Part shown: positions 702 through 37,411 of the stretch, in pieces
Numbering within the stretch: position 1 is the first letter of the stretch
Layout: each line of letters opens with the position of its first letter
IMG/VR virus record: IMGVR_UViG_2703719303_000002
Location: 39,354-103,353 of that record
From: a virus
Taxonomy: Duplodnaviria > Caudoviricetes
DNA length: 64,000 nt
Reading direction: 5' to 3' (one strand)
Made by a program: the position numbers and the translations under genes
Notes under the pieces: model-generated
Databases searched by the model: none
Told to the model about the DNA's origin: nothing
The model's input: only the letters and a program-made list of their open reading frames with translations

Positions 702-733
702 TTTATAATACAATACTAAGTGTTATAAGTCAA
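702..733 (-). promoter_or_regulatory. sigmaA promoter TTGACT-17-TATTAT containing the 18-bp box (713-730)
   Basis: Minus strand ttgact tataacacttagtattg tattat. Confidence 0.75.
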
Positions 734-951
734 GTGAAACTAATAGCTCCAAAAAATTTCAGCACCCAACCACATACTGCAATAGGTATAGTTATTTCTC
801 CTGTAAATAATCCTATTATTAAATTACCTATCGTAGGTATAGCAATATGAAACCATGAAAGGATCTCTTGTACCGACCAAGCTCCTATACTTATATTAAG
901 AATTACTAAAAAAATCGGAACAAAACACCCTAAGCATCCTGATTTCTTCAT
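730..951 (-). CDS. Small membrane protein
   Basis: Hydrophobic 73-aa ORF with RBS. Confidence 0.75.
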   Translation of the reverse strand: MKKSGCLGCFVPIFLVILNISIGAWSVQEILSWFHIAIPTIGNLIIGLFTGEITIPIAVCGWVLKFFGAISFT

Positions 952-970
952 ATAAACACACCACCTTATT

Positions 971-1207
971 TTATTTGTTATTTCTTAGATTAAAAATTTT
1001 CAGACTACTAGATATTGCTTCTTCTAGTGTGTTGCCATATCCATGACAAAAATGTTTATTATTTAACGGATCACTGACAGGTTCTATGTTCATTATCCTA
1101 TCAGCTAAATTGCAATGCCACTTATCTTCTAATCTATTTATTAATGGATGGTACTTCTCGTACTTTTTTAAAAATTCTGCTACACAAATTTTCATATTAA
1201 AACTCAT
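971..1207 (-). CDS. Hypothetical phage protein
   Basis: Translationally coupled ORF in the minus-strand array. Confidence 0.65.
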   Translation of the reverse strand: MSFNMKICVAEFLKKYEKYHPLINRLEDKWHCNLADRIMNIEPVSDPLNNKHFCHGYGNTLEEAISSSLKIFNLRNNK

Positions 1208-1481
1208 TCTCCTTTATTTTTTTTATATTGTAAGACTCTATATAATCTGCTTTGGTTTTTAAGCGAATATACCTATTTTCTAGGACTACCAACCCCATAT
1301 TCTTTCCTTGTAATGCTGCAACAATATCTTTTTTCTTTTTTAATGGTGGATTTAGTCCACTATTATCTGCATATACAGCACAATCACAAGCAGTACCTTT
1401 TCCAGATATAAACACCACATCAACAACGTAAACTTCTTTGTTCTCTGCCGTTTGATTCGTTTCTAATGTATCAATTTTCAA
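1197..1481 (-). CDS. Hypothetical phage protein
   Basis: GAGGTG RBS, TTG start. Confidence 0.7.
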   Translation of the reverse strand: MKIDTLETNQTAENKEVYVVDVVFISGKGTACDCAVYADNSGLNPPLKKKKDIVAALQGKNMGLVVLENRYIRLKTKADYIESYNIKKIKENEF

Positions 1482-1495
1482 AACATAACACCTCT

Positions 1496-1732
1496 TTATT
1501 CTTCTAATATAGAATATGATTCAATCATACTTGTACAAGATATATTCCCTTGAAAATATTTTGTACAAATCCAAATTAAGTGATTATTGCTTTCTAAAAT
1601 TCCTTTAATTTCTTCCTTTGTAGAACAAAAAAATGCAATATCGCCTTTATTACATACTTTATTCTTTGCTATTCTAGCTTTATGAATGAGTGTTCCATCC
1701 CTTAGTAGAATATTCACATATATTTCTTTCAC
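1496..1732 (-). CDS. Hypothetical phage protein
   Basis: GAGGAG RBS, GTG start. Confidence 0.7.
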   Translation of the reverse strand: MKEIYVNILLRDGTLIHKARIAKNKVCNKGDIAFFCSTKEEIKGILESNNHLIWICTKYFQGNISCTSMIESYSILEE

Positions 1733-2038
1733 TTATATCTCCTCTCTCTTCTTATAAAAGCTAGTTTTTATAAGAGTTGCACTACCATCTTTGATTTCAT
1801 ATATAGTCTCCACACTATAATCTTTACCACTCCATAAGTCTATTGCTAGAAATATTTTTTCATAAACCTTTTTCAGTAACTTAAATGGCTTATACTTTTT
1901 GCTATAACAGGCTTTATTAATATTCCTATACAATATTGTCTTATCGTTTCTTTTACTACACATAGTTAAATGTGCGTTAAAAAAACGAATACGCTTATTG
2001 ATATTCTTACTTATCTTTTTAACTTGTCTTCTATTCAT
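1733..2038 (-). CDS. Hypothetical basic phage protein
   Basis: GAGGT RBS, coupled to neighbours. Confidence 0.7.
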   Translation of the reverse strand: MNRRQVKKISKNINKRIRFFNAHLTMCSKRNDKTILYRNINKACYSKKYKPFKLLKKVYEKIFLAIDLWSGKDYSVETIYEIKDGSATLIKTSFYKKREEI

Positions 2039-2280
2039 ACAATTACCTCTAATAACTCAGGATTTTCGTAGATGTTGCCAATCACTTCCACCCTGTTTCC
2101 ATTCCTCACACAATTAAATAAATCTTGATTTGAACGTTTTTTACACATATACAGCAAAGGTACTTTTTCATTCGCACCAAGATACTTCTCCCACTCTTTC
2201 CTTTAATCCATTTTTTTGTTGCATATAGCGATTTTGGTAAATCAAAAGTATATTTGATAACATCACACCCATATAATTTT
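2035..2280 (-). pseudogene. YopX-family pseudogene (frameshifted remnant)
   Basis: YopX C-terminal signature EVIGNIYENPELL at about 2047-2088; upstream part broken across frames. Confidence 0.75.
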
Positions 2281-2981: not shown

Positions 2982-3087
2982 TTTTTACTCCTTGTCCTTG
3001 CTTTTTTAATGCATTTTATAAAAATAAAATTCATTTAACATAAATTTTATTTTTATAAAATTGTAAAATACTAATCGCCATAAGTGA

Positions 3088-3542: not shown

Positions 3543-4412
3543 CTACTTTAATTTTGTTAACCATTTAATAGAGTCTGCTGTTGCATAGCCATAAGCAGCA
3601 GCAACAACTTCAATAGATACTCCCTTTTTTAGTAGAAATAACATCTTTGACATTCTAACAATTCTTAAATCTACTTTCTCTAAGTTTATGTTTATTTTCC
3701 TAAATTCGTCTTTATATTCCTGCTTAGTTTTAGAAAAAATATTTCTTATTCCTTTCACTTTACCATCAGTACGACATCCTATTAATAGTGCCTTTATAAC
3801 ATAAGGACATTCTTTATAATCTATTGTATATACTCTCCCATCCTTCCCCATCTTCTCCTTTCCCTTTTCATTCTCTATATTATGAAGATCTTTTATAATA
3901 TCTTTATCTTCTATAATATATTCTTTATTTTTTGTTTTTAATAAAGCTTTTTTATTCAAAAAAGAAATATCTTGCATTTTTAAATTTTGTATTTCATCAG
4001 GTTTCAATCCCTCCCAAGATAATTCAATAACTAATCTATCCCTTATACATTGCACAACACCACACATATCTTTATATTGTTTATATGAAATTAAAGTTTC
4101 CTTAACTTCATCCTTTTTTACATATCTTGATAAATCTGTAACAGGAAAATTTCCTATAGTTATATTTTCTTCGTATGCAACATAAGCAGCAAACTGTCTG
4201 AGAACTAATAAAACTGAATTAACTCCTCTAGGTGTTGATGGTCTTACAATATCCATTAACATTCCTACTTCTTTTCCATTCTTTTGTTCCCACTCCATCA
4301 AACCTTTTCCCGTTTTTTCTTCTACTTCTATAATAGTCTTTAGAATTCTTTTGGAAGCTTTTGGGTAAAATTGCGTAAATAAATTATAATAGTATTTACT
4401 CGTGTTCTTCAT
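3543..4412 (-). CDS. Catalytically degenerate tyrosine-recombinase-fold protein; putative MrpR/SroF(YopR)-like master repressor
   Basis: RDRLVIELSWEGLKPDEIQNLK mimics integrase box I with Arg replaced by Lys; no HxxR, LGH or terminal Tyr; context like the SPbeta sro operon. Confidence 0.7.
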   Translation of the reverse strand: MKNTSKYYYNLFTQFYPKASKRILKTIIEVEEKTGKGLMEWEQKNGKEVGMLMDIVRPSTPRGVNSVLLVLRQFAAYVAYEENITIGNFPVTDLSRYVKKDEVKETLISYKQYKDMCGVVQCIRDRLVIELSWEGLKPDEIQNLKMQDISFLNKKALLKTKNKEYIIEDKDIIKDLHNIENEKGKEKMGKDGRVYTIDYKECPYVIKALLIGCRTDGKVKGIRNIFSKTKQEYKDEFRKININLEKVDLRIVRMSKMLFLLKKGVSIEVVAAAYGYATADSIKWLTKLK

Positions 4413-4944
4413 CTTTACTTACTCCTTTCTTAATGATGTAAAAGGACTTAGGAATAATACCCAATTCCTCTATAACAATAGCCTTTTTGTACTTTTTAAC
4501 AGCTCCTGATGATGTCATATAGCGCACAAAAAGTTCATCAATTTCCTCATCTTCAACTACCACTAACTCTTTATTAACTGTAATAGAAAGAAGCCCTTTT
4601 AATCTATTGTTATCTTCAGCAGCCTTTTGTAATGCATTCTTTAAGCTTTGTATATCTTCATCCTTTTTTTGATTTGATCTTTTAAGTTTACTTAATTCTA
4701 TCTTTAAAACATCCGCATTTGTATCGTTATCAACCTTATTTTTATTTTTTAAATCCTCTTTAAATAAAATATTCTTAAATTCTTCTTGATCCTTTTCTGT
4801 TTCAAGAATACTATAGTCTCCCTCTAGCATTTTTTCTATCTCTTTTGAAATAGATATGGGAGATAATAAAAATCTCTTCTTTAGAAATGCGGAAATTTCT
4901 AGTTCTTTACCTTTCAAAATTTGATTATCTATATTTAAATTCAT
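4396..4944 (-). CDS. Hypothetical coiled-coil protein co-transcribed with the MrpR-like gene
   Basis: GAGGTG RBS before ATG 4944; overlaps the next gene. Confidence 0.75.
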   Translation of the reverse strand: MNLNIDNQILKGKELEISAFLKKRFLLSPISISKEIEKMLEGDYSILETEKDQEEFKNILFKEDLKNKNKVDNDTNADVLKIELSKLKRSNQKKDEDIQSLKNALQKAAEDNNRLKGLLSITVNKELVVVEDEEIDELFVRYMTSSGAVKKYKKAIVIEELGIIPKSFYIIKKGVSKDEEHE

Positions 4945-4964
4945 TTTTTTCACCTCACAAAATC

Positions 4965-5013
4965 AATTATAGCAATTCGTATGAAAAAAGTCAATATACT
5001 AATTGCTATAAAT
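4965..5013 (-). promoter_or_regulatory. Strong sigmaA promoter TTGACT-17-TATAAT (TGn-extended) flanked by two inverted copies of the 18-bp box
   Basis: -35 at 4989-4994, -10 at 4966-4971; boxes at 4965-4982 (+) and 4996-5013 (-). Confidence 0.8.
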
Positions 5014-5020
5014 TAAAAAT

Positions 5021-5920
5021 TCAAAATATCTTATTAAGAGGATTGGCTTCTACTGCATTTTTTAATTGCTCTTTAGAAACATCTGTGTATATTCTGGTTG
5101 TAGAAACATCTTCGTGTCCTAATAATTCTTGTAACTGAAATAAATCTACTTCTCCACTTTGATATAATAGAGTTGCAAACGTATGTCTTAATATATGTAC
5201 TAAAACATCATTGTCACCTTTAATTCCTGCATTGTACATGGCATTTCTGATAGCATTTTGAACAGTTCCTCGTGCTATTCTACCATTTCTTTCTGATAAA
5301 AATAGAGCTTTTGTCTTTAAATTTTTTGGTCTTTGTTTAATATATAATTTAACAATCTTTTTTGCCTGATCTGTTAAATAAACTACTCTTTCTTTATTTT
5401 CTTTACCTATAATTCTTATTTCTTCTTCTAATATATTATCTACATTTAGGGATATGAGTTCTGATAATCTCATACCTGTTGATAAAAATATTATTATAAT
5501 ACACTTATCTCGAATAGTATTTCTGCTATTAACACTATTTATCAACCTTTTGCATTCTTCTATACTTAATGATTTTGGCAATCTTTTAGGAATCTTAGGT
5601 AAATCTCTTTTGTCTATCTTATCAAAAGGGTTATCTAATACAATTTTTTCTTGATCTAAATATTGAAAGAATAACTTTAAACTAATAATTTTTCTTCTAA
5701 TTGTTGTTGCTGCTCTCCCATTTTTTATTAAGTAGTTAATGAATTTTTTTATCTCCCTATAATCTATATTAACAAAATCCTCATCTTTTGTTATCTGCCT
5801 TTTTTTGTTTTTCATATATCTAAACCATACTTTTAAATCATTTAAATATTGTTTTCTAGTTCCTTCAGACTTAACTAAAAGATTTTTTTCATACATTTCA
5901 AGTCTTTCTTCTACCTTCAT
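5021..5920 (-). CDS. XerC/D-family tyrosine recombinase
   Basis: TGMRLSEL, GKENKER, HILRH, LLGH, TTRIY: full catalytic set. Confidence 0.93.
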   Translation of the reverse strand: MKVEERLEMYEKNLLVKSEGTRKQYLNDLKVWFRYMKNKKRQITKDEDFVNIDYREIKKFINYLIKNGRAATTIRRKIISLKLFFQYLDQEKIVLDNPFDKIDKRDLPKIPKRLPKSLSIEECKRLINSVNSRNTIRDKCIIIIFLSTGMRLSELISLNVDNILEEEIRIIGKENKERVVYLTDQAKKIVKLYIKQRPKNLKTKALFLSERNGRIARGTVQNAIRNAMYNAGIKGDNDVLVHILRHTFATLLYQSGEVDLFQLQELLGHEDVSTTRIYTDVSKEQLKNAVEANPLNKIF

Positions 5921-6069: not shown

Positions 6070-6357
6070 TTAAGCACACCTTACTTTCAGTGGAAGAAAG
6101 AATCTGTTATCATGCGATTCGATTTCTTTAAATAAGAACTTCAAATTTTTATGTTTACCATGGTGATGCATACCCACCCCTTGGCGTGTATTTTCATGAT
6201 ATAATACAATTCCTTCCTTCATCACCTGATTTCTTTTAATATACCACGTATCTAATTTACTTTTTATCCTAATAAAATTCCCTATAAAATCATATTTAAA
6301 ATTATATATTCTACATAAATTTTCTATTTCCTTTTCTTTATTATTCAATACTGTCAC
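6070..6357 (-). CDS. Hypothetical phage protein
   Basis: Overlaps the upstream stop; His-rich LYHEN...HHHGKH. Confidence 0.7.
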   Translation of the reverse strand: MTVLNNKEKEIENLCRIYNFKYDFIGNFIRIKSKLDTWYIKRNQVMKEGIVLYHENTRQGVGMHHHGKHKNLKFLFKEIESHDNRFFLPLKVRCA

Positions 6358-7399
6358 CTTCTTTAAAAATCTCTTCTATTTTTTTGTTGATTTCTTCATC
6401 TTGATTAGAAAAATACTCGTTATAGTCTTTTTTAAGTTCCTCTAATCTAATCTTGATAGATTCTGATCTTGCCGAACCTGAACCAGCAGCAGAATTATAT
6501 TTTTCACTTATAGAAGCTCTTCTTTTTCCACTGTAAAATTTTAATAACCAACTTGCTAGTTCTTCTATAGTTTTATCTGATTTAATTACTATAGGTATTA
6601 TTGTAAGTAAATGCGTTCTTGTAAGAATTCTTTTAGCTATCTTTTTATGTTCTTTATCTTCTGTATTTATTGCTTTCCATATATCTAATATTTTACTATA
6701 TGCTTTTTTTATCTCTTCTTTTTGTTGTTCTGTAAATTCTACATCTTGCATAAGCGGTCTTATTTTTTTAGTTTCAAAACTAGGGTTTTCTGTATATAAC
6801 ATTGCATACGTCTTTATTACAATATCTTCATTTGTATATTTATTTACCTGCTTTAATGTTAGAGCATTTTTAAATATTTCATGATTACCTAATTCCCTTA
6901 TTGCATCAAAACTTTTGGCTTTAACTCTTGTTAATTCTATTGCTGATAAAGCTTTTCCATTGTTTAATCTATAAAACATTTCACTTACTTGATCATCTGA
7001 TAAATCCAAAAAGAAATATACTGTTAAAGAGTAATCTTTTACTCTATCTTGTAATTCCTCTGGTAATTCCTCAAAACTCATTCCATTTACATCAATTGAT
7101 TCTCCATCTTCTAACTCAACTTCTTCTATTCCATCAAGTTTAAACTTTCCTTCTATAAATTCCTTAATTGCATGACAACGCTGTTTTCCATCCAACATAT
7201 CATATGTTTTATCTTCATTTCTTGCTGCATAAAAAGCTGGAATAGGATAATTCTGAAACATTGAATCTATAAGCAATATCTTTTTATCAGTTTTCCAACA
7301 TAAACCACGTTGTACTGAATTGTCAAATCCAAGAGTACCCTTGTCCATCATTTTTGCAATCTGTTTAGCAGTCCATTGTATATTTGATTTTTTTAACAT
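6341..7399 (-). CDS. DUF262 (ParB/Srx-like fold) protein without an HNH domain
   Basis: VQRGLCW, LIDSM...YPIPAFY, LDGKQR, FYRLNNGKALS motifs. Confidence 0.85.
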   Translation of the reverse strand: MLKKSNIQWTAKQIAKMMDKGTLGFDNSVQRGLCWKTDKKILLIDSMFQNYPIPAFYAARNEDKTYDMLDGKQRCHAIKEFIEGKFKLDGIEEVELEDGESIDVNGMSFEELPEELQDRVKDYSLTVYFFLDLSDDQVSEMFYRLNNGKALSAIELTRVKAKSFDAIRELGNHEIFKNALTLKQVNKYTNEDIVIKTYAMLYTENPSFETKKIRPLMQDVEFTEQQKEEIKKAYSKILDIWKAINTEDKEHKKIAKRILTRTHLLTIIPIVIKSDKTIEELASWLLKFYSGKRRASISEKYNSAAGSGSARSESIKIRLEELKKDYNEYFSNQDEEINKKIEEIFKEGDSIE

Positions 7400-9527: not shown

Positions 9528-9848
9528 CTATATAAACCCTTTAAGTTGATTTAATTCATTTTTACGTCTTTTATCATCTTTATGCACCTTATTAGTATTA
9601 ACTGGTTCAATTATTTTTTTCTTTTTCGTATCCATATCACACCTATTATCATCTTGTTGCACCTCAACGGTACTGCTTTTAATTTGACTTATATTATCGT
9701 TCTGCACCGAAAGGCAACCATTTATAGCTAAACGATATAATATTTCTTTAATGGTATCTTGCGCTCTATAAGATTGAGAAAGATAATCTAAAATTTTTTT
9801 ATCTTTTTCCTTATCTTCATTTAATGTAATATATATTCTCTTACTCAT
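9528..9848 (-). CDS. ParR-like ribbon-helix-helix adaptor
   Basis: N-terminal KRIYITL beta strand plus two helices, low-complexity linker and C-terminal helix; coupled to the ParM-like gene. Confidence 0.7.
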   Translation of the reverse strand: MSKRIYITLNEDKEKDKKILDYLSQSYRAQDTIKEILYRLAINGCLSVQNDNISQIKSSTVEVQQDDNRCDMDTKKKKIIEPVNTNKVHKDDKRRKNELNQLKGFI

Positions 9849-10717
9849 TCTTCTTCACTCTGCCATATTATTTCTGCTGCTCCTGCTGCACCATTCGTAT
9901 TACTATTTAATGGATCATTGTGTAATTTTGAATTATTTAATGGTAACTTTTCTATTTGTTCTTTTAACATTAAAGCAGTTCCTCCTGTCCAAATCACTTT
10001 ATATGTTTTTAAGTTAACATAAGCCTTTACTTCATTAAGCACTTCTGTTAAAAAATCCTCGTATTCAATATCACTTATTTCTATTGTCCCATTCTCAACC
10101 AGCCTTGGAATGTCCTCTTCTGTGTAGTCTTCACCTTTTGAATTTTCTCTAGTCTTAACCTTTGTATAAAAATCAAAGCTACCCAATTTAATTGTATGCA
10201 ATAGTTGAATAGCCCCATCTTGTAATACACATATGTTTATTGTTCTGCTGCCTAAGTCTATTATGCAAAGACTACTTTCTTTATCCTCTTCTGATAAGCT
10301 AAAATAAGTAGCATAACCCTCTGGGAGAACTATTGTATCATTAATAAGAACTTTTCTCTTTTCTCCGTTGAACTGAAAATTGAACTCTTTTTCTTTTAAA
10401 TTTTCAATCATCTTTTCCTTATTTTTCATTTGAACTATTGGTAAAAGAGTTACTAAATTAGTTTCTATATTGTCATAATTATTTGCCCTACAAATCGCAT
10501 AAAGCAATTGTGGCAAATAATTTCTTGCCACCTTGTTAAATTCTTTATTTAATTCGCCAACACCTAGATATGTAATCTTACTTTCTCCTTGCATTTGTAT
10601 TCTTTCAAACCCTTCTGGGTATGGTTGATAATCGGTAATTTTACTACTAAAATTACCCTGATTGCTTCCTGATTTATATTTGATATTAAAGTTTCCTAAA
10701 TCAACTACAGTTATCAC
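9845..10717 (-). CDS. ParM/StbA-family actin-like ATPase
   Basis: VDLGNFNIK (phosphate 1), LPEG, IIDLGSRT (phosphate 2), WTGGT (adenosine). Confidence 0.88.
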   Translation of the reverse strand: MITVVDLGNFNIKYKSGSNQGNFSSKITDYQPYPEGFERIQMQGESKITYLGVGELNKEFNKVARNYLPQLLYAICRANNYDNIETNLVTLLPIVQMKNKEKMIENLKEKEFNFQFNGEKRKVLINDTIVLPEGYATYFSLSEEDKESSLCIIDLGSRTINICVLQDGAIQLLHTIKLGSFDFYTKVKTRENSKGEDYTEEDIPRLVENGTIEISDIEYEDFLTEVLNEVKAYVNLKTYKVIWTGGTALMLKEQIEKLPLNNSKLHNDPLNSNTNGAAGAAEIIWQSEEE

Positions 10718-12012: not shown

Positions 12013-12060
12013 AATTTTATCCTTCTTTCTATTTAAATACTAACTGTTAATAGTAGACTT

Positions 12061-14590: not shown

Positions 14591-14622
14591 TTTGTTATTC
14601 CCTCTTTTCTTTATACTAATTG

Positions 14623-14922
14623 TTATAAGCTATTTATTTTATCTTTCTTATACCTATCTAAATCAAATCCTTTAAAATTAAACGAAAACCCGCAAAATAT
14701 TTCTTTATAGGAATAGTTTATATAATGCCTCTTGAAAAATTTAATTAATCGTGTTGGATCAAGTATAGTAATATCTTGACCTTTTAAAAAATCATATACA
14801 CTTTTTTTAAAATTATAAGAATACATATCTAAACCATAACGTATTTCATTTTCAACCTCATTTTCTAATAGCAATATATTCACCTCTAATTTGCATATAT
14901 TATGTTTACTTTGAAACTTCAA
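14623..14922 (-). CDS. Hypothetical phage protein
   Basis: ORF in array; start uncertain. Confidence 0.6.
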   Translation of the reverse strand: MKFQSKHNICKLEVNILLLENEVENEIRYGLDMYSYNFKKSVYDFLKGQDITILDPTRLIKFFKRHYINYSYKEIFCGFSFNFKGFDLDRYKKDKINSL

Positions 14923-17223: not shown

Positions 17224-17283
17224 AATTTTATCCTTCTTTCTATTCAAATACTAACTGATATAAGACGTTTAATTTGATTCGTC

Positions 17284-17700: not shown

Positions 17701-17753
17701 TTTTAAAACTCCTTTATTATATTTTATTTTTAATGCTAATTGTCATAAGTGGA

Positions 17754-18505: not shown

Positions 18506-19291
18506 TTTTAACACCCTCTTTACTTATGTATTATATCATAAAATATAAATATCTTTTATATTCTAATTTAAAAATACACCTGTTAATATATTCTTAAATT
18601 AGAATATAAGACTATAAAAATGCACACACTTACAGCATGATTTTACAAATATAATATCAATTACTTTAAACTTATTTTTATTTACACAATAAAATATAAG
18701 GTAATATATAATTATTTAGATGTCATTTTTATAATCTTATAATAGTGTATTAGTTTAATTTTAAAAATATTTTTCATTCTAGTAATTAAAGAACATGGAT
18801 ATATAAGGACTATATATATTCTTTTATGAATTGTTTTGTCATAGTTTTTTAAAATTAAAAATATAGAAAATAACATTTTAACAATTGAAAATTTACAAAC
18901 AACGATAGAATAAGTAATTGAACCAATAGAGTTATAAAACGGTCGTTGTAATAAATCGTGCATTCCTTTCACCCTTCCAACCTATTTTCCAAGGTGTTTT
19001 CTTATGCTAGTGTTATACACTTTTAAATATCTATGACCATTATCAAATAATAATCGCCACGATATAGCATAGTATAAGTAGCCTATATGAAGCATAGTAA
19101 TATACTTATTTTTCAAAGTGCGTTATGACCTGATGAAATAATCGAGCCTTACAATTTAATTAGTCCGTAATTTGATGTAAATAATTGTATGCTACCATTG
19201 TATTACTGTATAGAATTAACTATTATTTTATGTTATTGTTATATGCTTACTGTTGTAAGTCGTTTAAGTTGTTTCCCTCAAGCACATGTAT

Positions 19292-19320: not shown

Positions 19321-20190
19321 TGTGTATTTTAGGTCGAATACTTATTGTGCTAACTGTTATAAGTCATTAATTTAAATTAGCTATGTATACCTGCCTTTTT
19401 CGTTTGTTTACTAAGTCGCCTATAAAAGCTATTTATAAATTATAAGTAATACTGCTATATACTCATATAAGGCTATTTAACACGTGTTTATATTTGATAT
19501 AGAATTGTACTACTATAGTATTAAAAATCAATTATAGACGTTTTAAGCTGAATATATAGTCATAATCTATTTATATATCAATAGTATATTAACCTATAGT
19601 ATATATTATAGTGTATATCATTAGATATAAGATTATCATTAAATTTAAGAACCTATACAATATATAGTACTAATATGTATGTATTATTCAGCCATAAAAA
19701 ATACTATAGTTTTTTTATTCCACTATTAATAAAAACAAGTAAACATTATTTTTTTGAAAAAGTAATCAAACAAAAAAATATATTAACTAATAACAAATAT
19801 TAGTTCATAAAGATTCAACTATAGCTATTTTCTGACTACAACACCCTTTTTTTACAAGAAATTACTTTACATTAGATTAAATATGTATTTAATTCAATGT
19901 TTTTCACTCAAACCCTCTACGCTAAGAATATCAATGTGTTTTAAGAATTATTTATTGTCATGATCGTAGGAAAATAAAGCTATTTGCTGCAAGAATTACT
20001 ACATAGGGGGGTACTTTACGTTTCAACGGGTTTCGGGTTTTCAAAATTTCCCCACCCCTAGTCTCTTCTCTTACTCAGTTAAAATTTAATATTATATACA
20101 GTAATTAAAACGGGAAAAAACTCTAAATCCTTTTACATACTTAATTTTTTATATACTTTTCTAACTTTTTTGTTTTTTTAATACCCTTTC

Positions 20191-20374
20191 ACCGTAAATT
20201 CTAATCCCTCATACCGTAATTTTCCACCGTAATATTTTTGCTAATTTATTTGCTTAATCCAAAAAATCACGCTTTAACCCTTGATACTATTTTGTTTCAC
20301 CGTAATTTAATTTTAATATATTCATTGAAAAAACATTTCCTAATAGCTTGCTATATCTAACTTCCTCCGTAATT
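20191..20374 (+). repeat. Five copies of (A/T)CCGTAA(T)
   Basis: Copies at 20191, 20213, 20226, 20299, 20366. Confidence 0.75.
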
Positions 20375-20425
20375 CAAATTAATGATATTAATTTTGATAT
20401 CTTAAATCTTTTAAATTGTATTTAT

Positions 20426-20454
20426 TTGACTTGTAACACTTAGTATGATAACAT
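20426..20454 (+). promoter_or_regulatory. Rightward sigmaA promoter TTGACT-17-TAACAT (TGn-extended) with the 18-bp box at 20429-20446
   Basis: ttgact tgtaacacttagtatga taacat. Confidence 0.75.
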
Positions 20455-23951: not shown

Positions 23952-23980
23952 TTGACTTATTGCAGTTAGTATGTTATTAT
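23952..23980 (+). promoter_or_regulatory. sigmaA promoter TTGACT-17-TATTAT (TGn-extended) with the 18-bp box at 23955-23972
   Basis: ttgact tattgcagttagtatgt tattat. Confidence 0.75.
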
Positions 23981-24010: not shown

Positions 24011-25840
24011 ATGGAGATAAATAAGCAGCAAAAAGAAGTTATAAACCTTAACGAAGGTATTTATTGTGTTAGCGCTGGCGCTGGAAGTGGAAAAACTTTT
24101 TCGTTAGTTCAACATATAATTCATTTAGTAAATGATTTGAATATTCCACAAAGTGATATTCTGCTAATTTCTTTTACAAGAGCAGCAGTTAATAATCTAA
24201 AAAAAAAGTTAGAAGAAAATTTTATTTATGACGTTTCCGTTCATACTTTTCACAGCCTATCAGCTAAGATACTTAGCGAATATGGGTTGAATGTTTCAAA
24301 AACATTACCAGTTTGGAAGATTCAAAAAGAATTTGAGAAAATAAATTCTAATGTTGAGACAGAAAAAATTTTATCGTGGATTGGTTTTCAAAAAAATCAT
24401 GGAAAAACCCCAAAAGATAAATTTTATCCGATAGAAACAGATTATACAGAAACTGAGCTTAGAGCTATGTTTAAACTTTATGAAAATTTAAAAGAAAAAG
24501 AAAACTGTTATGACTTTGAAGATTGGATTATTTTAGCTTTAGAAAAGTTAAAAAAGCATCCCCGTAAATGGAAATATGTAATGGCTGACGAAGTTCAAGA
24601 TAGTAATGATTTAAATATAGAGATGATCAAACTAATTTCCAAGAATCTTATTTGTGTTGGTGATGTTAGACAAGCGATATATAGTTTTCGTGGAAGCAGT
24701 CCTCAATTCTTTTTAAATTTTGATAAAGAATTTAATGGGGCAAAAATACTTCATTTAGATATTAATTATCGTTCTAAAAAAAACATTGTAGACAAAAGTA
24801 ATAAATTCATAAAACCGTATTTTAAAGATTATAAATATTATTCAGATAGCATAGCAAACTTTAAAGATAATGGAGAAATAAAATATTTTTCTTTTGTGAA
24901 TAAGTTAGAGGAATCTGAAAAGATATCTAATTTAATAAAAGAAAAGATAACAAAAGGTGAAGATCCTAACAATATCGCTGTTCTCTATCGGTTAAATGAT
25001 GACTCAAGTTATTTAGAATGTGTTTTAAGAAGAGATAAAATACCTTATTATATTGAGAATGATTCTAGTTTTTTTAAAAGAAAAGAAATAGCTGGAATTA
25101 TGGGATATTTACGATTAATTCAGAATTCAAAAGATGATGGAGCTTTTTTAGATGTCTGGAATCTAAGAAATATTCCATTAAAATATATGTCAGGTACAAT
25201 TTTATCAGATATAAGGAAGCAATCAGTAAAAGAAAATAAAAGTTATTTTGAGATTTTTAAAAAAATGGATTTTAATAAAATGTTTCAAATAAGATCAAGA
25301 AATGATTTTATAAAAAGCATTGAGAAATTAAAACATAAGAATAAAGTATCTATAAAGCAATTAATAGATGATATAGTAAAAGAATTTAATTTATATCAAT
25401 GGATAAAAGAAAAATATCCCAATAAAGATGAGCAAGAAGAAAGAAAAGGTTCAATAGACGTTTTGAAATCTTTCATTGTAAATGATGATTTGCAATTTTT
25501 TATAGATTTTGTACAAACATCAAATATGAATATTAAGAAAAAAGATAAAGATGGAGTAAAGCTTATGAGTATCCATAGATCCAAAGGACTTGAATGGAAA
25601 AGTGTTTTTGTTATTGGAATACAAGATACTAGGTTTCCCAATGCAAGAAATGGCTTGAATGAAGAAGCCAGATTGTTCTATGTTGCTACTACTAGAGCAA
25701 TTGAGAATCTTTATTTAAGTGAAATTGGCAGAAATAATTCTTTTATATGTCAGTATAGAGATGGTGTAGGCTTACAAAGTAGGGCTGTAGATAAAAAACA
25801 ATTTAAGAAAGAATTATCTTCTACCACTTATGGCAATTAG
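24011..25840 (+). CDS. UvrD/PcrA-like SF1A helicase
   Basis: AGAGSGKT, DEVQD, GDVRQAIYSFRG, NYRS, SIHRSKGLEW, EEARLFYVATTRA. Confidence 0.93.
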   Translation: MEINKQQKEVINLNEGIYCVSAGAGSGKTFSLVQHIIHLVNDLNIPQSDILLISFTRAAVNNLKKKLEENFIYDVSVHTFHSLSAKILSEYGLNVSKTLPVWKIQKEFEKINSNVETEKILSWIGFQKNHGKTPKDKFYPIETDYTETELRAMFKLYENLKEKENCYDFEDWIILALEKLKKHPRKWKYVMADEVQDSNDLNIEMIKLISKNLICVGDVRQAIYSFRGSSPQFFLNFDKEFNGAKILHLDINYRSKKNIVDKSNKFIKPYFKDYKYYSDSIANFKDNGEIKYFSFVNKLEESEKISNLIKEKITKGEDPNNIAVLYRLNDDSSYLECVLRRDKIPYYIENDSSFFKRKEIAGIMGYLRLIQNSKDDGAFLDVWNLRNIPLKYMSGTILSDIRKQSVKENKSYFEIFKKMDFNKMFQIRSRNDFIKSIEKLKHKNKVSIKQLIDDIVKEFNLYQWIKEKYPNKDEQEERKGSIDVLKSFIVNDDLQFFIDFVQTSNMNIKKKDKDGVKLMSIHRSKGLEWKSVFVIGIQDTRFPNARNGLNEEARLFYVATTRAIENLYLSEIGRNNSFICQYRDGVGLQSRAVDKKQFKKELSSTTYGN

Positions 25841-25868
25841 TATATAGAAAATATTAGGAGGATTTTAA

Positions 25869-26376: not shown

Positions 26377-26418
26377 TTTTGGATAAATGACTTGTATCAT
26401 TATGTATGGAGGGATTTA

Positions 26419-28854
26419 ATGAAAAATATGTTTGATGTAACTAAAGGTTGTTATATAAACTCCCTCCAAGCTTCTTTAGTCATGAATCATATGGAGTTTG
26501 GAAAGGATATATATACAAAAAAATATCTAGCTTCTCTTGATTATAGTCTAGAACTTATATATCTATACAACATATATAATAAATCGGTAAAGATACTAGA
26601 TAGGCAAGTTTCTGATGTTATTATAGATATAAAGTTTTCTAGGAATCAAAAGGATAGTAATAATAATGTCATTAGAAATAAACGACAGCTAAGAAAAGAA
26701 TTGTATGAAAATGGTTTCGTTCTTAATGGAGTAAAGTATATACGGTATAAAAGAACTACTGCAAAATCTCGAAAAGGACATTGTTTATTTATTATAGAAA
26801 AATTATATAAAAAAATGATAAATTGGAGTAGATTAAATTTACATTTTGAAGAAAATGAAATACTTGATTTGCCTTCCCTTTTTGCATATGAAAGTTTACC
26901 ACTGTCTTCAATTGAAGACATTATAGAAATTGATCCTGAGTCAATTTTGATAATAGATGATATTGAAAGTAAATTTTTCAAAAGATGTAGTGTTACAAGA
27001 TTAAATAAAGAAACTGGCTTATTACAAGCAAAAGATGAAGAAATTGAATTATTTAATAACCTGTTTGATGGACAAAGTTTAGTAGATAAGTCTATTTTTG
27101 AAAAGGCTGTTAGAAAAGATAAAGGAATGATGTTACTTAGAAAACAAATGTTTAAATCTTGTGGTTTCAATACAAACATACAGGAATTCTTTGAAGATAA
27201 TAATATTCTTTTAGTTAAAGATATGTTTGGTGTAGAACATTTAGCAAAAGATATAAAAATGATTATAACTCCATCTTCTTTAAAATTTCTTAAATTTTCA
27301 TATAAATTCTCTTCAAAAAGAGAATGCTTTGAATATTGGAAAAAACATATTTCTAATGTCTTCGGTATTGTAAAATCAGAACATAAAAGTAAATATAATA
27401 ATGGCAAAAATAAATTAGCCTACCAACATATTAACAGCTTACCTCTTAATTTCAATGATGTTCAAAATTTAGCACAAGATGAAATAAATTATGTAAAAAA
27501 ATTAAGAAATGACATTTCTGAATTCAAGAAATATTGTGGATGTTGCGAAGATAGCGGATTATTTATATGTGCTGCTCTTTCAGTAAATGATAATTTCCAA
27601 TATACAAAATTATTTAAAGATTATAGGAAATATCTAGTAAAAAATTATATAAATAATAACCTAAGATTGGGAAAAATCAAGATACAAAAAGCTGATTATT
27701 GTACAATAGTTGGAAATCCTTATGAAATGCTACAAGCAACAATAGGTAAATATAATCCAAAGAAATGTATCTTTTCTGATGGGGAAGTTTATACACCATT
27801 ATTTAAAGATAGCGAAGAAATTGTTGGTTTTAGAAATCCTCATGTTTGTTCAGGGAATGTTTTATTGGTAAAGAATAAATATGATTGGAGATTAAATAAA
27901 TATTTTAATTTCACAGAAAATATTGTTGCAGTAAATTTAATAGACTTCCCTTTGCAGGATACCCTGCAAGGATCAGATCAAGATTCTGATACGGTATTAC
28001 TAACCAATAATAAGATAATATTGAATTCAGCAAAAAAATGTTTTGGAAAGTATAATATACCAGTAAATAGAGTTGAAGCAAAAAAAAAGACAAGAAAATA
28101 TATTGTTGAAGATATTGTAGATGTAGATTGCACAATATCAGAAAATCTAATTGGACAAATAATTAATTTAAGTCAATTTTTAAATTCTTTATACTGGCAT
28201 AATAAATTTAATGGTATAAACATAAAAATGCAACAACACATTTATAATTCGATTTCTATTTTGTCTAGCATGAGCCAGATTGAAATTGACAAAGCAAAAA
28301 AATTATATGATGTTGACATGAAAAAAATGCTAAAACATATATACACTCAAAAATTTCTTATAAAAGACAAGGATACTCAAAAAATAATACGCCCTGCTTT
28401 TTTTAAATATGCTGGTCAATCTAAATCTAGTAATTTTAAATTTATGGATACCCCAATGGATTATTTAAATAAATTAATAAACGATATTCCTCGTGGAAAA
28501 CATACAAAGCTAATAAAGATAGAGGATATCTGTTGTAAAAGTATAAAAACAAGGGGGTATGCAAATACACAAATAAATTCCATAAAAAAGATTTTTGAAA
28601 AAGCTCAAAAACAAATAAATGGTGCGAGAATGAATTGTGAGAATGATAAAGAAAGTGAAAGAAAAACCAAAAATATAATAAGGTGGGTAAAAGCTGGATT
28701 AATAGAAAAAATGTCAAATAAAAATATAACTTTACCAACAATGAGAGTTATATTATTCAATTTAGATGATTTTAAAAATTACAAAATGCTTTTACTAGGT
28801 ACTTTGTTTGTAACTCATAAAAAAGTATTGCTAGAATGTCTAAAAAATGCATAA
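26419..28854 (+). CDS. yonO: YonO-like single-subunit (two-barrel, RdRP-related) DNA-dependent RNA polymerase
   Basis: RKELYENGF, YKRTTAKSRKGHCLF, DGQSL, PSSLKFLKF, FRNPH, catalytic GSDQDSD, IEIDKAKK; lies upstream of late genes as in SPbeta. Confidence 0.85.
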   Translation: MKNMFDVTKGCYINSLQASLVMNHMEFGKDIYTKKYLASLDYSLELIYLYNIYNKSVKILDRQVSDVIIDIKFSRNQKDSNNNVIRNKRQLRKELYENGFVLNGVKYIRYKRTTAKSRKGHCLFIIEKLYKKMINWSRLNLHFEENEILDLPSLFAYESLPLSSIEDIIEIDPESILIIDDIESKFFKRCSVTRLNKETGLLQAKDEEIELFNNLFDGQSLVDKSIFEKAVRKDKGMMLLRKQMFKSCGFNTNIQEFFEDNNILLVKDMFGVEHLAKDIKMIITPSSLKFLKFSYKFSSKRECFEYWKKHISNVFGIVKSEHKSKYNNGKNKLAYQHINSLPLNFNDVQNLAQDEINYVKKLRNDISEFKKYCGCCEDSGLFICAALSVNDNFQYTKLFKDYRKYLVKNYINNNLRLGKIKIQKADYCTIVGNPYEMLQATIGKYNPKKCIFSDGEVYTPLFKDSEEIVGFRNPHVCSGNVLLVKNKYDWRLNKYFNFTENIVAVNLIDFPLQDTLQGSDQDSDTVLLTNNKIILNSAKKCFGKYNIPVNRVEAKKKTRKYIVEDIVDVDCTISENLIGQIINLSQFLNSLYWHNKFNGINIKMQQHIYNSISILSSMSQIEIDKAKKLYDVDMKKMLKHIYTQKFLIKDKDTQKIIRPAFFKYAGQSKSSNFKFMDTPMDYLNKLINDIPRGKHTKLIKIEDICCKSIKTRGYANTQINSIKKIFEKAQKQINGARMNCENDKESERKTKNIIRWVKAGLIEKMSNKNITLPTMRVILFNLDDFKNYKMLLLGTLFVTHKKVLLECLKNA

Positions 28855-28919
28855 AATCATTGTAATTTTTTTTGAACACCGCATGAATAAAGGGATAAAG
28901 CTATGTTGAAAAGTGGTAT

Positions 28920-29160
28920 TATGGTAGAGATAAAGATAATTCTCTACCTGAGAGTGATTTGGAATAGATCATTTAAAAGGGGGTTTGGTCAGCCTACTGG
29001 ACATTGTAGACCAAGAAACGTGAGAGTTACTATATTGAATTTTAACTCAATAAAAGTTTCGTTTGTTCTGAAAGGGGAACGCTTAAAAAACCTTAATTTT
29101 ATTAAAATACAATAGGTCAGGAATTGCTTTTATGTTTTTTAAAGCTATTTCTCCTATTGA
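28920..29160 (+). ncRNA. Candidate structured ncRNA or late-operon leader
   Basis: Seven helices, several with G-U pairs that favour the + strand (see findings). Confidence 0.6.
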
Positions 29161-29227
29161 ATATTTTTCGACTTACGACAATTAGTATATAATATATACA
29201 TAAGTTTATTTTGGGAGGTTTTATTTT

Positions 29228-33844: not shown

Positions 33845-35338
33845 ATAGGTAAAAGAAAAACATCTAAAAACAATATAAGTAATAATTTTTGTTTTGGAGC
33901 AAGTCTAGCCGAAGACGACATTGAAAACATTAGGACATATGAAAATAGTACATTTTCTTATAGAGGAATCCCAAGAGGTTATTCTATAGATACTCTTTTG
34001 CTAAATCAAGAAAGCAACATAAAACAATTGTTTGAGTTATGCACATATTATTATGCAAAAGAACCCCTCTTAGCCAACTCGGTAAAAAATGTACTTGTAC
34101 CTTTTAGTATGAGTAGCTGGAAACTAGAAGGAGAAGATGGGGAAATAAAAGACCAGATGCTTGATTATTTAGATAGTATATCAATAGACGATTTATTGAG
34201 AGATTTGTTTCATGATTTCTATGTATATCAAAATCTTTTTGGATATATAAAAGAAAATGGTACTCCAGAACTTTTTGCTCCTTGGAGAATAAAGGTATCT
34301 TCTATCGCAGAAAACGGAAATCCTGTTTTGGAATTTAGCATAACAGAGATACTTAATAAGCCATATTCTATTACAAATCAAGAGTTTATAGACACTATTT
34401 CTAAAGCTTATGATGGTTACCCAATAGAAGTTGTTAATGCAATAAAAGGCAAAAATTGGTCAAACTCTGGTACTGGATGGATTCAATTAAATCCAAAGCA
34501 TACTTTTTGTATACAAGCTGTAAAAAGTAGATGGAGCAAATATGCAACTCCTGTTATTTGCTCTGCCTTAGAAGCTTTAGGTAAAAAACAGCTTATAAGT
34601 ATATATGAAGATAGTCAATTAAATAATGGAATGAAATCTTTTCTTCAAGTAAATGTTGGAGATAAAGACCATAAGAAAACTATAAATATAAATGATATTG
34701 AACAAGTTGGGAAAATATACAAAGATGCAATTAATGGTTATCCTCTTGCTGTTGTATCTTGGAATGTAGACTCTCAATGGAAAAATATGGATACAAAAAG
34801 TCTGTTTGATAAAAATAAATATCAAACTGTAAATGAATCCATTCTTAGTTCTATTGGTATATCTGCTATAGTTGTTACGGGAAATGGTGGAAGTGGTTCT
34901 TTTGCTCAGGCAAGTATAAATCTTAGTACTTTAGCGAAAAGGATAAAAGATGGTCAAAACAAAATTGCAAAATTTATAAATTTACTTTTAAAAAGAAAAT
35001 TTTCAGGAAGAAGTAGTACTTCGGATGGAATTCCTTCCTTTAAATTTGAATCCCTAAATTTACAATCGGAAAAAGATTTTAGAAGTGAAGTTATGCAGCT
35101 TTATACTTTTGGATTATTAAGTAGAGAAACGACCTTATCTGAATTAAAATTCGATTTTAAGCAAGAAAAGAAAAGAAGAGAAAGTGAAAATAGTGAAAAT
35201 TTAGATATTGTTTTCTCTGTTCCACCATCATTTAATCATCAAAGTTCAAATAGTAGTGGAAGACATGAAGAAGAAAATTCAGATAAAGATAAAAGTTTAT
35301 CTGGTAAGCAGCCAAAGCCTAGCACAGTATCGAATTAA
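33845..35338 (+). CDS. Portal protein (YonE-like); apparent ATA start
   Basis: Follows TerL; frame open from ATA 33845 after AAGGAGG; TTG 33998 has no RBS. Confidence 0.82.
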   Translation: MGKRKTSKNNISNNFCFGASLAEDDIENIRTYENSTFSYRGIPRGYSIDTLLLNQESNIKQLFELCTYYYAKEPLLANSVKNVLVPFSMSSWKLEGEDGEIKDQMLDYLDSISIDDLLRDLFHDFYVYQNLFGYIKENGTPELFAPWRIKVSSIAENGNPVLEFSITEILNKPYSITNQEFIDTISKAYDGYPIEVVNAIKGKNWSNSGTGWIQLNPKHTFCIQAVKSRWSKYATPVICSALEALGKKQLISIYEDSQLNNGMKSFLQVNVGDKDHKKTININDIEQVGKIYKDAINGYPLAVVSWNVDSQWKNMDTKSLFDKNKYQTVNESILSSIGISAIVVTGNGGSGSFAQASINLSTLAKRIKDGQNKIAKFINLLLKRKFSGRSSTSDGIPSFKFESLNLQSEKDFRSEVMQLYTFGLLSRETTLSELKFDFKQEKKRRESENSENLDIVFSVPPSFNHQSSNSSGRHEEENSDKDKSLSGKQPKPSTVSN

Positions 35339-35411
35339 AATTTCGTTAATAGTAAAATTATATAAAATGGCTTTTTTATTTTTAAAAACTATATAGTAAG
35401 AAGGTGAAATT

Positions 35412-36878
35412 TTGCCTGAAAAATTTAAATGCAAAAGCAAAAGAATTATTTCAATTGCAGAGAAACAAGTTGGTTCAGATCTTTTTCTTATTATAGATTT
35501 TCTACTAAATGACACTAATACCAATTTAAATGGTGTAAGATATTCAAAAGAATTTTTACAAGAGATAGTTGATAACCAAGAAGAATATGTAGGACTTCCC
35601 CTTAAGGTTGATTTGAATAATTTAGTAAGTGGTAATACTGAAAATCTTACCCACAATTATTCTCCAATAACAAATAAGTTTTATAATCAGATGATAGGTT
35701 CATTTGTTAAATTTTATAGTACTAAAAGTGATGATGATATATATGAGCTAGCTGGTCAGGTAAGAATACCAAAAGAATTTAAAGATGCTTGCGACATTAT
35801 ACAACAACTATATGAAGATGAAGCTCTTTTTGTAAGTTACGAAATTCTCGTTGGGAAATATACAGAAGAAAATAATGGAGAAATTAAATTTGTTGATGTT
35901 GACGAGTCAAATAAATTGAGTGGTTATTCAATTGTTAGTACTCCTGCCGTTGTATCTGCAAAAGCCACAAAATTAGTTGCGGAATTATTAAATATTAAGG
36001 AAAGTGAGAATGAAATGGTAAAAAAAATTAACCCTTTAGAGTGGGAAGAGAAAATACTTGCAGAACTAAAAAAGTCTTATAGAAGAACAGAGATTGCAGA
36101 ATTAAACTATAATCAAGTAATGCTGAGTTTAAGAAGCCAATTAAAAGATAATTTAGGTGATTGCTATTGGAATTTTTATATTTTCTCAAATGGTGTAGAT
36201 TTTCTTGTAATGGAGAATTATGATGATGGTTCTTTAGTAAGAATTGATTTTACTGTTGATGGAGATAATGTTGTAATTTTAAATGTCTATCCAGTAACTA
36301 TAAAATATGACTCTATTGAAAATGAGGAGGAAAACGAAATGGCAGAAAAAAAGAAAAATCCTAAAAAGAAGTTAAATGATACAAAAGAAACTGATTCGGA
36401 TTCAAAAAAAGATAAAGCAGATGATGAGGGAGATGATGAAATGTCTAGTGCGGAAATAGCTGCAAAATTAGAGTTAGAAAAAGTTAAAAGACAAGATGCA
36501 GAAAAAAAATTGGAGCAAGCCAATAAAAAAATAAGTACTTTATCAGCTTCAGTTTTGGAAAAAGATAAAAAATTAAAAGATATGGAAGAGCTAAAAGCAG
36601 AAAATGAAACTTTAAAAAAAGATAAAGCAGAAAAAGAGTTAGCTGAGAAGAAGATAGCTTTAAAAGCAAAATATGAGAAAATACTTTCAGAAGATACTAT
36701 GAAAAAGTCAGAAGTTGCAGAAGCTTTAGAGAAAGGTAACGAAGATACTCTCCAAAAAATAGTTGTAGCAGAAGCTTTAGCTTCTTCAGAGAATATCGAA
36801 AGACAACCACTAGGAACTCGTATTACAGATAATGCATCCATAAGTGACAATTATATGGTAAGTTTTTTTGGCAAGTAG
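35412..36878 (+). CDS. Prohead protease/scaffold (YonD-like)
   Basis: NLNG, VSYEI, IVSTPA protease-like N-terminus; coiled-coil C-terminus. Confidence 0.78.
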   Translation: MPEKFKCKSKRIISIAEKQVGSDLFLIIDFLLNDTNTNLNGVRYSKEFLQEIVDNQEEYVGLPLKVDLNNLVSGNTENLTHNYSPITNKFYNQMIGSFVKFYSTKSDDDIYELAGQVRIPKEFKDACDIIQQLYEDEALFVSYEILVGKYTEENNGEIKFVDVDESNKLSGYSIVSTPAVVSAKATKLVAELLNIKESENEMVKKINPLEWEEKILAELKKSYRRTEIAELNYNQVMLSLRSQLKDNLGDCYWNFYIFSNGVDFLVMENYDDGSLVRIDFTVDGDNVVILNVYPVTIKYDSIENEEENEMAEKKKNPKKKLNDTKETDSDSKKDKADDEGDDEMSSAEIAAKLELEKVKRQDAEKKLEQANKKISTLSASVLEKDKKLKDMEELKAENETLKKDKAEKELAEKKIALKAKYEKILSEDTMKKSEVAEALEKGNEDTLQKIVVAEALASSENIERQPLGTRITDNASISDNYMVSFFGK

Positions 36879-36925
36879 CATCTTATAACAATTAGTATAT
36901 GAAAAATATTAGGAGGATTTTTAAT

Positions 36926-37369
36926 ATGGCAGGAATGGTTACTATGGGCAACCACAATTATTTAGGTACAATAGAATTAGATAGTAGTGTTAAAGATGGT
37001 GTAGAAAATGGTTCTTTTGTTTGTGTTAACTTTGCAGATAAAACAGCAAAACCATGTACTTCTAATACCCAATCAGCATGGTTTGTTGAAAATTTAAATG
37101 ATAAAACAGATGAAGAACTTATAAATAAAACCGATCATGATTTAACAATAAATGCAGGTGAGAAACTTAGATTGCATAAACTTTTACCTGATGAGCATTT
37201 CCAAACAACAAAAGCGGTTGATGGAGATTCCCTAAAGGAAGGAGACGTTGTAGATGTAGGTACAACTGGTTTAATTACTAAAACATCTGGTACACCAGCT
37301 CAAACATTTACAATAGATTCTATAGAAACAATATGGGGTGAAAAAACTTTTTGTTGTATAGCAAATTAA
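36926..37369 (+). CDS. Head decoration/cement protein
   Basis: Between scaffold and capsid; VENGSFV; AGGAGG RBS. Confidence 0.65.
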   Translation: MAGMVTMGNHNYLGTIELDSSVKDGVENGSFVCVNFADKTAKPCTSNTQSAWFVENLNDKTDEELINKTDHDLTINAGEKLRLHKLLPDEHFQTTKAVDGDSLKEGDVVDVGTTGLITKTSGTPAQTFTIDSIETIWGEKTFCCIAN

Positions 37370-37411
37370 TTTTTCAGCTTATAGCAATTAGCATATAAAG
37401 GAGAAATGATT

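Follow-up and report, generated by a model that had tools for sequence, protein, structure and literature searches.

An oriented box repeated along a "clostridial" SPbeta-like provirus and its probable reader, a distant SroF/MrpR-type repressor

What reads a short sequence that recurs in the gaps between the genes of a phage, almost always in the direction of the genes around it? The question is raised by a 64-kb stretch of DNA (the window) comprising bases 39354-103353, the final part, of the 103,353-bp provirus record IMGVR_UViG_2703719303_000002. A preliminary description had recognized in this window 16 copies of an 18-bp box with the consensus ACTTATRRCAVTTAGYAT and had proposed them as the operators of a repressor with a recombinase fold. 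We refer to the provirus, whose G+C content is low (28%), as a "clostridial" SPbeta-like prophage; the word clostridial is a label only, and the record was estimated by CheckV to be 65% complete. Our analysis makes it likely that the boxes are operators and stoperator-like sites of a monomeric, SroF-type repressor, a protein of 289 amino acids (aa) encoded in the window. Coordinates refer to the window unless given as genome coordinates.

A consensus scan of the window recovered all 16 boxes exactly at the positions and on the strands first described. With up to 3 mismatches allowed, the window contained 18 matches, compared to 2.8 ± 1.75 (maximum, 8) in 100 shuffled sequences. Two matches with three mismatches each, at 55626 and 63682, did not exceed 10 bits in the whole-genome scan and were taken as chance occurrences. 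While the count of 16 holds for the window, it is too low for the whole record, which contains 29 copies: a weight-matrix scan revealed 13 more upstream of the window, all of them on the minus strand. The 29 copies have an information content of 21.5 bits, and positions T3, C9, T12, G15 and A17 are invariant; top scores in first-order Markov controls were 10.4 to 13.0 bits. The same whole-record scan found no copy in the final 26.6 kb, which hold the rest of the late region with tail-like and other genes. A strict form of the box pattern occurs 3 times in the 103-kb provirus record and 114 times in 596 Gb of sequence from the genomes of 185,579 species, there always singly and in unrelated taxa. 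The box array is real, and it is larger than initially described.

Box orientation followed that of the local gene strand in 28 of the 29 copies (binomial p = 1.1e-7), the sole exception being the copy at 4965 on the plus strand. The co-orientation reported for 15 of the 16 window copies thus extends to the entire record. According to crude open reading frame (ORF) calls, the boxes start at points ranging from 15 nt short of the upstream ORF's end to about 20 nt past its stop codon, and the next start codon mostly follows at a distance of 17 to 57 nt, in good agreement with the initial view that the boxes are intergenic or lie on a stop codon. The box had also been called an imperfect palindrome. 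Partial pairing does exist (C2-G15, T3-A14 and A5-T12), but the site as a whole is asymmetric, since C9 and A17, both invariant, lack a counterpart in the dyad, and it is not a palindromic operator. Furthermore, a T4-T13 mismatch is retained in 27 of the 29 boxes.

The boxes fall into two classes according to their relation to promoters. Class I comprises six copies, at 713, 20429 and 23955 in the window and at genome positions 12534, 21183 and 27057. Here, TTG stands directly 5' of the box, so that box bases 1 to 3 complete a TTGACT -35 hexamer, a TAnnnT -10 hexamer begins 2 nt past the box, and the spacer of 17 nt is filled by the box. TAnnnT was found 2 nt downstream in 6/6 boxes preceded by TTG, compared to 2/23 boxes without TTG (Fisher p = 5.9e-5). 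The identical register noticed earlier at the three window copies is therefore also that of three copies outside the window. An ATGACT variant at genome position 3022 represents a seventh promoter-overlapping box, and about 7 of the 29 boxes thus overlap promoters. The class I boxes of the window, together with three boxes at or near other promoter-like sequences, are as follows.

713 to 730, minus strand: class I box; TTGACT -35 completed by box bases 1 to 3, TATTAT -10 beginning 2 nt after the box
20429 to 20446, plus strand: class I box; TTGACT-17-TAACAT, the first rightward promoter of the arm carrying the polymerase gene
23955 to 23972, plus strand: class I box; TTGACT-17-TATTAT, 5' of a UvrD-like helicase gene
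3068 to 3085, minus strand: box directly past the stop codon of a 158-aa gene; ATCACT-17-TACAAT, possibly a weak promoter
19347 to 19364, minus strand: box with the -35 hexamer of a leftward TTGAAT-17-TATTAT promoter, in the divergent region, about 27 nt downstream of it
19243 to 19260, minus strand: box about 30 nt downstream of the same leftward promoter and thus in its leader

The leftward promoter flanked by the last two boxes is located at a 1.4-kb non-coding divergent region (19380-20400) between the two gene arms. At least five CCGTAAT iterons lie at about 20150-20380, and this region may be a replication origin. Generic sigma-70 pattern scans did not rise above shuffled controls (113 versus 137 and 125 versus 126 matches), and only the TTGAC[AT] promoter class was informative. 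Box-free members of this class serve a tRNA-Leu/6S unit, an AimR-like cassette, one minus-strand ORF of the late region and a unit at genome position 2161. The first of these stands at the very start of the record and consists of a 6S RNA (Rfam RF00013, 56.6 bits; genome 53-244, minus strand) and a tRNA-Leu(GAG) (genome 253-336, minus strand) behind a TTGACA-17-TAAAAT promoter; it is either host flank or phage cargo. The late-region promoter, a near-consensus TTGACA-16-TATAAT at 43280-43253 on the minus strand, leads into an 89-aa ORF (42958-43227) that looks like a moron within the plus-strand late region.

Class II boxes have neither hexamer and occupy the interval from a stop codon upstream to the ribosome-binding site that follows. 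In many of them the ribosome-binding site starts 2 to 12 nt past the box, which leaves little space for a transcription start downstream of it. The class II boxes of the window and the boxes around the gene for a polymerase of the YonO family are listed below.

12037 to 12054, minus strand: class II box, 24 nt 5' of the start of a 271-aa gene
14613 to 14630, minus strand: class II box overlapping the end of the upstream ORF, next start 22 nt away
17248 to 17265, minus strand: class II box, next start 24 nt away
17733 to 17750, minus strand: class II box 3 nt past the upstream stop codon, next start 32 nt away
25826 to 25843, plus strand: class II box on the UvrD-like helicase gene's stop codon, next start 25 nt away
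36881 to 36898, plus strand: class II box 5' of a 156-aa head-module gene (scaffold-like)
37377 to 37394, plus strand: class II box 3 nt 5' of the ribosome-binding site of a major-capsid-like gene; the last copy of the record
26390 to 26407, plus strand: weak box (10.3 bits) abutting the polymerase gene's ribosome-binding site, GGAGGG
26392 to 28854, plus strand: single-chain RNA polymerase of the YonO family (phrog_8308, E 5e-120; DQDSD aligned to the DNDGD of YonO; likely start ATG at 26419)
29171 to 29188, plus strand: box 317 nt past the polymerase gene, after a structured stretch; same layout in two related records, G001 and G002

The weak copy had been placed before the yonO-like gene; its position at the ribosome-binding site stands, but its score lies within the noise range. 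The 300-nt stretch that follows this gene (28855-29170, plus strand) is non-coding, and at its end, just 5' of box 29171, stands a terminator-like hairpin. In G001 and G002 (loci L016 and L015), the polymerase gene is followed by a box, a structured stretch of about 110 nt with a hairpin and a T-run, another box and a gene; in SPbeta, an unannotated RNA lies after the YonO start site. A hairpin with a 13-bp stem (38434-38464, plus strand) is located directly 3' of the capsid-like gene, which is thus flanked by a box on its 5' side and a hairpin on its 3' side.

The candidate reader of the boxes is encoded by the middle gene of a three-gene operon (4953 to 3088) whose surroundings are unusual in their box content.

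5021 to 5920, minus strand: intact tyrosine recombinase of 299 aa with GMR, HILRH, LGH and IY motifs, in the YopP/SroD position just upstream of the operon
4996 to 5013, minus strand: box abutting the operon promoter's -35 hexamer on its upstream side; inverted partner of the box at 4965
4966 to 4994, minus strand: operon promoter, TTGACT-17-TATAAT (11/12 consensus positions, TG-extended)
4965 to 4982, plus strand: the sole counter-oriented box, over the spacer and -10 hexamer of the operon promoter
4396 to 4953, minus strand: 185-aa protein of no known family, the first gene of the operon; position kept in relatives (185 to 211 aa)
3543 to 4412, minus strand: candidate box reader, a 289-aa protein resembling SroF/MrpR, with an integrase fold that has lost its catalytic residues
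3088 to 3564, minus strand: 158-aa protein of no known family, the last gene of the operon

The record has a single inverted box pair (4996/4965), and its location at the operon promoter suggests autoregulation. Library searches with the 289-aa protein returned only phrog_5830 and a sub-threshold match to Phage_integrase, a word-indexed homologue search found only the protein itself, and a scan of genome contigs with it gave no match. We nevertheless found 71 distant relatives, 46 of which entered an alignment. The Pfam family MrpR_N_CB was matched by 10 of these 46 (best E, 2.8e-6), and the profile of the family aligned to MrpR with an hhalign probability of 90% (E 1.7e-6). MrpR was reached neither by phmmer with the 289-aa protein nor by hmmsearch with the family profile against PDB sequences. 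An alignment-based AlphaFold2 (AF2) model of the protein reached a predicted local distance difference test score (pLDDT) of 93.6 (a single-sequence model, with a pLDDT of 33.5, was unusable) and showed the two-domain fold of tyrosine recombinases, with a core-binding and a catalytic-like domain. Its best match in the PDB was the Phi3T SroF-DNA structure 9rd5 (Z 19.5, root mean square deviation 4.8, 269 residues aligned). Ranks 2 to 5 were taken by 9rgl, an SroF-Sar complex, and by 8a0a, 8bpz and 8bj6 (MrpR and two YopR entries), and the true recombinases XerA, XerH and Cre came next at Z 14 to 16.

In an alignment to a recombinase, itself of low confidence, the 289-aa protein shows GLK where box I of recombinases has GLR and KWL, with a tryptophan, at the site of the nucleophilic tyrosine. 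It contains a single histidine overall, and its final 13 residues include no tyrosine. The neighboring 299-aa recombinase retains every catalytic residue. The gene order recombinase, small gene (185 aa here) and dead recombinase is shared by four related loci (L005, L006, L007 and L010) and parallels that of yopP-yopQ-yopR. We found no CI-like rival repressor, since the only HTH_3 match of the record falls in an AimR-like ORF. This 439-aa ORF (HTH_3, E 9.8e-5) lies outside the window, at genome position ~12.8-14.25 kb, and has a TTGACA-17-TATTAT promoter without a box. Immediately upstream of the genes for the recombinase and the candidate repressor, a gene at 6341-7399 (minus strand) encodes a GmrSD_N/DUF262-type protein (Pfam E 4e-20), possibly a defence gene expressed from the lysogeny region. 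Further along the same arm, at 9845-10717 (minus strand), a 290-aa protein matches the partition family phrog_691 (E 4e-41), and the element may be capable of persisting as a plasmid-prophage despite its integrases.

The closest precedent is found in the SPbeta-like phages. MrpR (YopR, SroF) binds a repeated element of SPbeta, the SPBRE, at ten promoter regions, as determined by chromatin affinity purification sequencing (ChAP-seq) and electrophoretic mobility shift assay (EMSA), and represses PaimR and PyosX (PMC10516654). SroF of Phi3T binds in monomeric form, recognizing 24 of the 26 bp of its asymmetric box, Phi3TRE, and the sro operon of SPbeta is a six-gene unit (bioRxiv 10.1101/2025.11.27.690993). 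In the SPbeta record we found 11 SPBREs with a conserved upstream ACAAAtAC, exactly at the published target genes, and in 11/11 sites the orientation of the SPBRE matched that of the target gene. The element stands 3 nt 5' of the ribosome-binding site at yopM and yopV and just upstream of a TTGAnT-17-TATAAT promoter at aimR and yonX; it also precedes yonP, and a separate motif search placed another copy between yonP and yonO. The anatomy of the boxes studied here is thus that of a validated repressor site. The words orientation, roadblock and elongation are absent from both the MrpR paper (PMC10516654) and the SroF paper (bioRxiv 10.1101/2025.11.27.690993).

The two systems have much in common: an integrase-fold protein devoid of catalytic residues, whose gene comes at the end of an operon after an integrase-like gene; a long asymmetric box that is found genome-wide, co-oriented with genes and located at promoters or just 5' of ribosome-binding sites, including before the YonO polymerase gene; and an AimR-like receptor ORF along with a YonO-family polymerase. 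However, the 289-aa protein is only about 22% identical to MrpR, and the sequence of its presumptive box is unrelated to the SPBRE save for a GTAT-ATA end. Additionally, the boxes extend to head genes here, and their -35 register is fixed, unlike in SPbeta. Nor did we see a LexA-controlled Sar-like unit in a scan for intergenic LexA boxes of this 65% complete record.

Relatives of the 289-aa protein are encoded by nine IMG/VR loci. Counts of exact 9-mers, and plain counts of mismatches, drowned in A+T-rich noise. Three of the related records contain genome-wide oriented boxes of their own.

G001: box ACAATTAAACAATAAT, up to 2 mismatches, 51 copies (control, 0)
G002: box ACAATTAAATAATAAT, up to 2 mismatches, 78 copies (control, 4)
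G004: box ACAAWTCWAATATAATAT, up to 3 mismatches, 79 copies (control, 6)

In each of these records the boxes are split by strand into arms, and at the loci examined they are co-oriented with genes and often abut a ribosome-binding site. Relatives with the different box ACAATTAAAYAATAAT display, at some of its copies, TTGACA-17-(-10) promoters in which ACA represents box bases 1 to 3, the same register as in the provirus studied here (G000 in pairwise comparisons). The boxes of G001, G002 and G004 agree with one another at 13 to 15 of 16 positions and with that of G000 at 8 of 16. Similarly, their repressors are 37 to 50% identical to one another, compared to 23 to 28% with G000. The polymerases group differently: those of G000, G001 and G002 are 37 to 77% identical, whereas that of G004 is 22 to 24% identical to them and 51% identical to SPbeta YonO. 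At the level of these sequences, box similarity appears to track the repressor rather than the YonO-like polymerase, which is supportive but not conclusive. The mere presence or absence of YonO failed as a discriminator, since G004 also bears a YonO gene (phrog_8308, E 1e-292). In L008, L009, L012 and L013, our motif search did not reveal any convincing box. In G005, where an MrpR-like gene is present but YonO is not matched, we found no genome-wide box but a local repeat in a tRNA cluster: 8 to 9 copies of ATATTTAAATAT-AGGCACACACAGCAAA stand 5' of clustered tRNA genes at L014 11430-15765 (G005 19.8-24.2 kb), perhaps serving as local promoters or as sites of processing.

Fold, profile, lost catalysis, synteny, SPBRE-like anatomy and covariation with the repressor all favor the initial proposal that this is a clostridial counterpart of MrpR/SroF and the SPBRE. 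The reading of the boxes as an operator regulon is likewise supported, except that the operators would not be palindromic and that the majority of the boxes are stoperator-like, only about 7 being located at promoters. The putative 289-aa repressor probably wraps the asymmetric box as a monomer, like SroF; indeed, an asymmetric site is what would be expected for a monomeric SroF-type reader (bioRxiv 10.1101/2025.11.27.690993). At class I boxes, a repressor bound to the end of the -35 hexamer and the spacer would block sigmaA initiation. At the promoter of its own operon, the inverted pair, one box touching the -35 hexamer and the other covering the -10 hexamer, would provide autoregulation. 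The class II boxes, about 20 copies, would act as orientation-dependent roadblocks (stoperators) against read-through into the lytic genes of a lysogen, among them those around the YonO-like polymerase, and the lack of boxes at the distal late genes may reflect a dependence of these genes on that polymerase. What we infer from the sequences is the binding, the repression and the roadblock mode.

A similar arrangement has been described in mycobacteriophage L5 and other Cluster A phages, where short gaps between genes hold more than 20 asymmetric sites of the monomeric repressor gp71, oriented with transcription, and where flipping a site abolishes repression (PMC9283540). The likeness extends to the number of sites, their asymmetry, their location in short gaps, the tie between orientation and transcription and the monomeric repressor expected here. 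It also includes the mixture of promoter and intergenic sites, as one L5 site overlaps an early promoter and the rest are located in gaps. However, gp71 consists of a helix-turn-helix (HTH) and a Stoperator domain, while the candidate reader has an integrase fold. The L5 sites are 13 bp long rather than 18 bp, Cluster A phages encode no polymerase, and the orientation-dependent elongation block has been demonstrated in L5, while it is deduced here. The L5 system is thus an analogue, and this phage is not a member of it, because its candidate reader does not belong to the gp71 family.

Several observations weigh against assigning the boxes to an SroF-type repressor. The 289-aa protein has no direct Pfam match to MrpR and reaches it by BLASTP only with E 7e-4, so that profile and fold are the basis of the homology, and in the fold comparison true recombinases score just 1.5 to 4 Z units below the SroF/MrpR structures. 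No intergenic LexA box (GAAC-N4-GTTC) and no Sar-like unit were found in the record, which is 65% complete, Sar being without a searchable family. The 51 to 79 copies per genome in the relatives far exceed the 10 to 11 known for SPbeta, a number also exceeded by the 29 copies here. A terminator-like structure precedes box 29171, where no good sigmaA promoter is visible, and the boxes at 36881 and 37377, before scaffold- and capsid-like genes, resemble, in their placement, phage-polymerase promoters in front of highly expressed genes, while the late region of SPbeta has no SPBRE. Finally, the covariation comparison involves four or five taxa only (G000, G001, G002, G004 and SPbeta).

Some of these points would be accommodated if the box were a promoter, or promoter core, for the YonO-like polymerase or for a phage factor redirecting the host polymerase, a reading that we consider unlikely. 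The phage would then follow a T7-style scheme, in which the TTGACT promoters would be used by the host enzyme to produce a phage polymerase that then acts at about 29 oriented promoters. T7-type promoters are conserved oriented elements in short intergenic gaps, including gaps before scaffold and capsid genes. The boxes are like them in being oriented elements of comparable length (18 to 23 bp) in such gaps: an 18-bp conserved element, co-oriented and intergenic, occurs at about 1 copy per 2 to 3.5 kb, directly 5' of the scaffold-like and capsid-like genes among others, and copy numbers are very high. Furthermore, a box follows the terminator-like structure about 300 nt past the polymerase gene, as it does in G001 and G002, and every record with a genome-wide box has a YonO-family gene. 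The promoter of YonO is itself undefined (PMC5467207), and we found no defined one in a literature search; in SPbeta, only 37 late genes depend on YonO, and their transcription begins at one start, which lies upstream of yonK (PMC5467207). It is at this start, however, that no SPBRE was found, and the SPbeta element is bound by MrpR (PMC10516654).

In the provirus, the element differs from a T7-type promoter in covarying with the repressor, in its fixed register within host-type promoters, in abutting ribosome-binding sites and in being missing from distal late genes. The box of G004 is close to those of G001 and G002, although its polymerase is 51% identical to SPbeta YonO and only distantly related to theirs. 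Six copies lie in fixed register inside sigmaA promoters, and the counter-oriented box covers the -10 hexamer of the repressor operon. At several boxes the ribosome-binding site follows after 2 to 5 nt, so that transcription would have to start inside the box. Boxes crowd the early and proximal polymerase arms and are absent from the last 26.6 kb, the reverse of a late-promoter pattern. It is improbable that the box serves, alone or besides repressor binding, as a YonO-type promoter in a T7-like cascade that an SroF-type repressor silences on the same sequence.

We give equally little credence to a different DNA reader, such as the Xer-like neighbor, the 185-aa protein or some factor for partition or compaction, with any silencing by the 289-aa protein being indirect. 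Three further proteins of unknown or recombinase function are encoded in and next to the operon, and a ParM-like partition gene belongs to the same arm, but Xer-type sites are dyads with a central spacer that are not repeated 29 to 79 times, and partition sites are clustered instead of standing one per intergenic gap. The asymmetric 18-bp site (up to about 24 bp with its flanks) fits a monomeric SroF-type reader. Least probable is that the box acts in RNA, as a processing site, translational operator or stability element of cistron leaders: it does lie on the sense strand immediately upstream of ribosome-binding sites and can form a weak hairpin through its three partial pairs, with two pairing-improving changes in the copy at 19243, but pairing is not what is conserved, given the retained T4-T13 mismatch and the unpaired invariant C9 and A17, six or seven copies occupy the -35 hexamer and spacer and are thus upstream of their own start site, one functional-looking copy is antisense over a -10 hexamer, and the homologous SPbeta element is bound as DNA (PMC10516654).

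The data support the view that the repressor and its boxes form a new, very distant branch of the SroF/MrpR-SPBRE kind. To our knowledge, no SroF/MrpR repressor has been described outside the SPbeta-like phages of Bacillus. The present findings would extend them to distant (about 22% identical) large phages of low G+C content, with genomes of 100 to 126 kb and YonO-type polymerases. The strict co-orientation of the boxes, also seen in 11/11 SPbeta sites, together with numbers that can reach 50 to 80 copies per genome, would point to an L5-like stoperator silencing carried out by an unrelated fold. If confirmed, this would provide a testable rule for monomeric repressors with asymmetric recognition sites in general, and these phages would offer a set of natural repressor-operator pairs with differing specificities.

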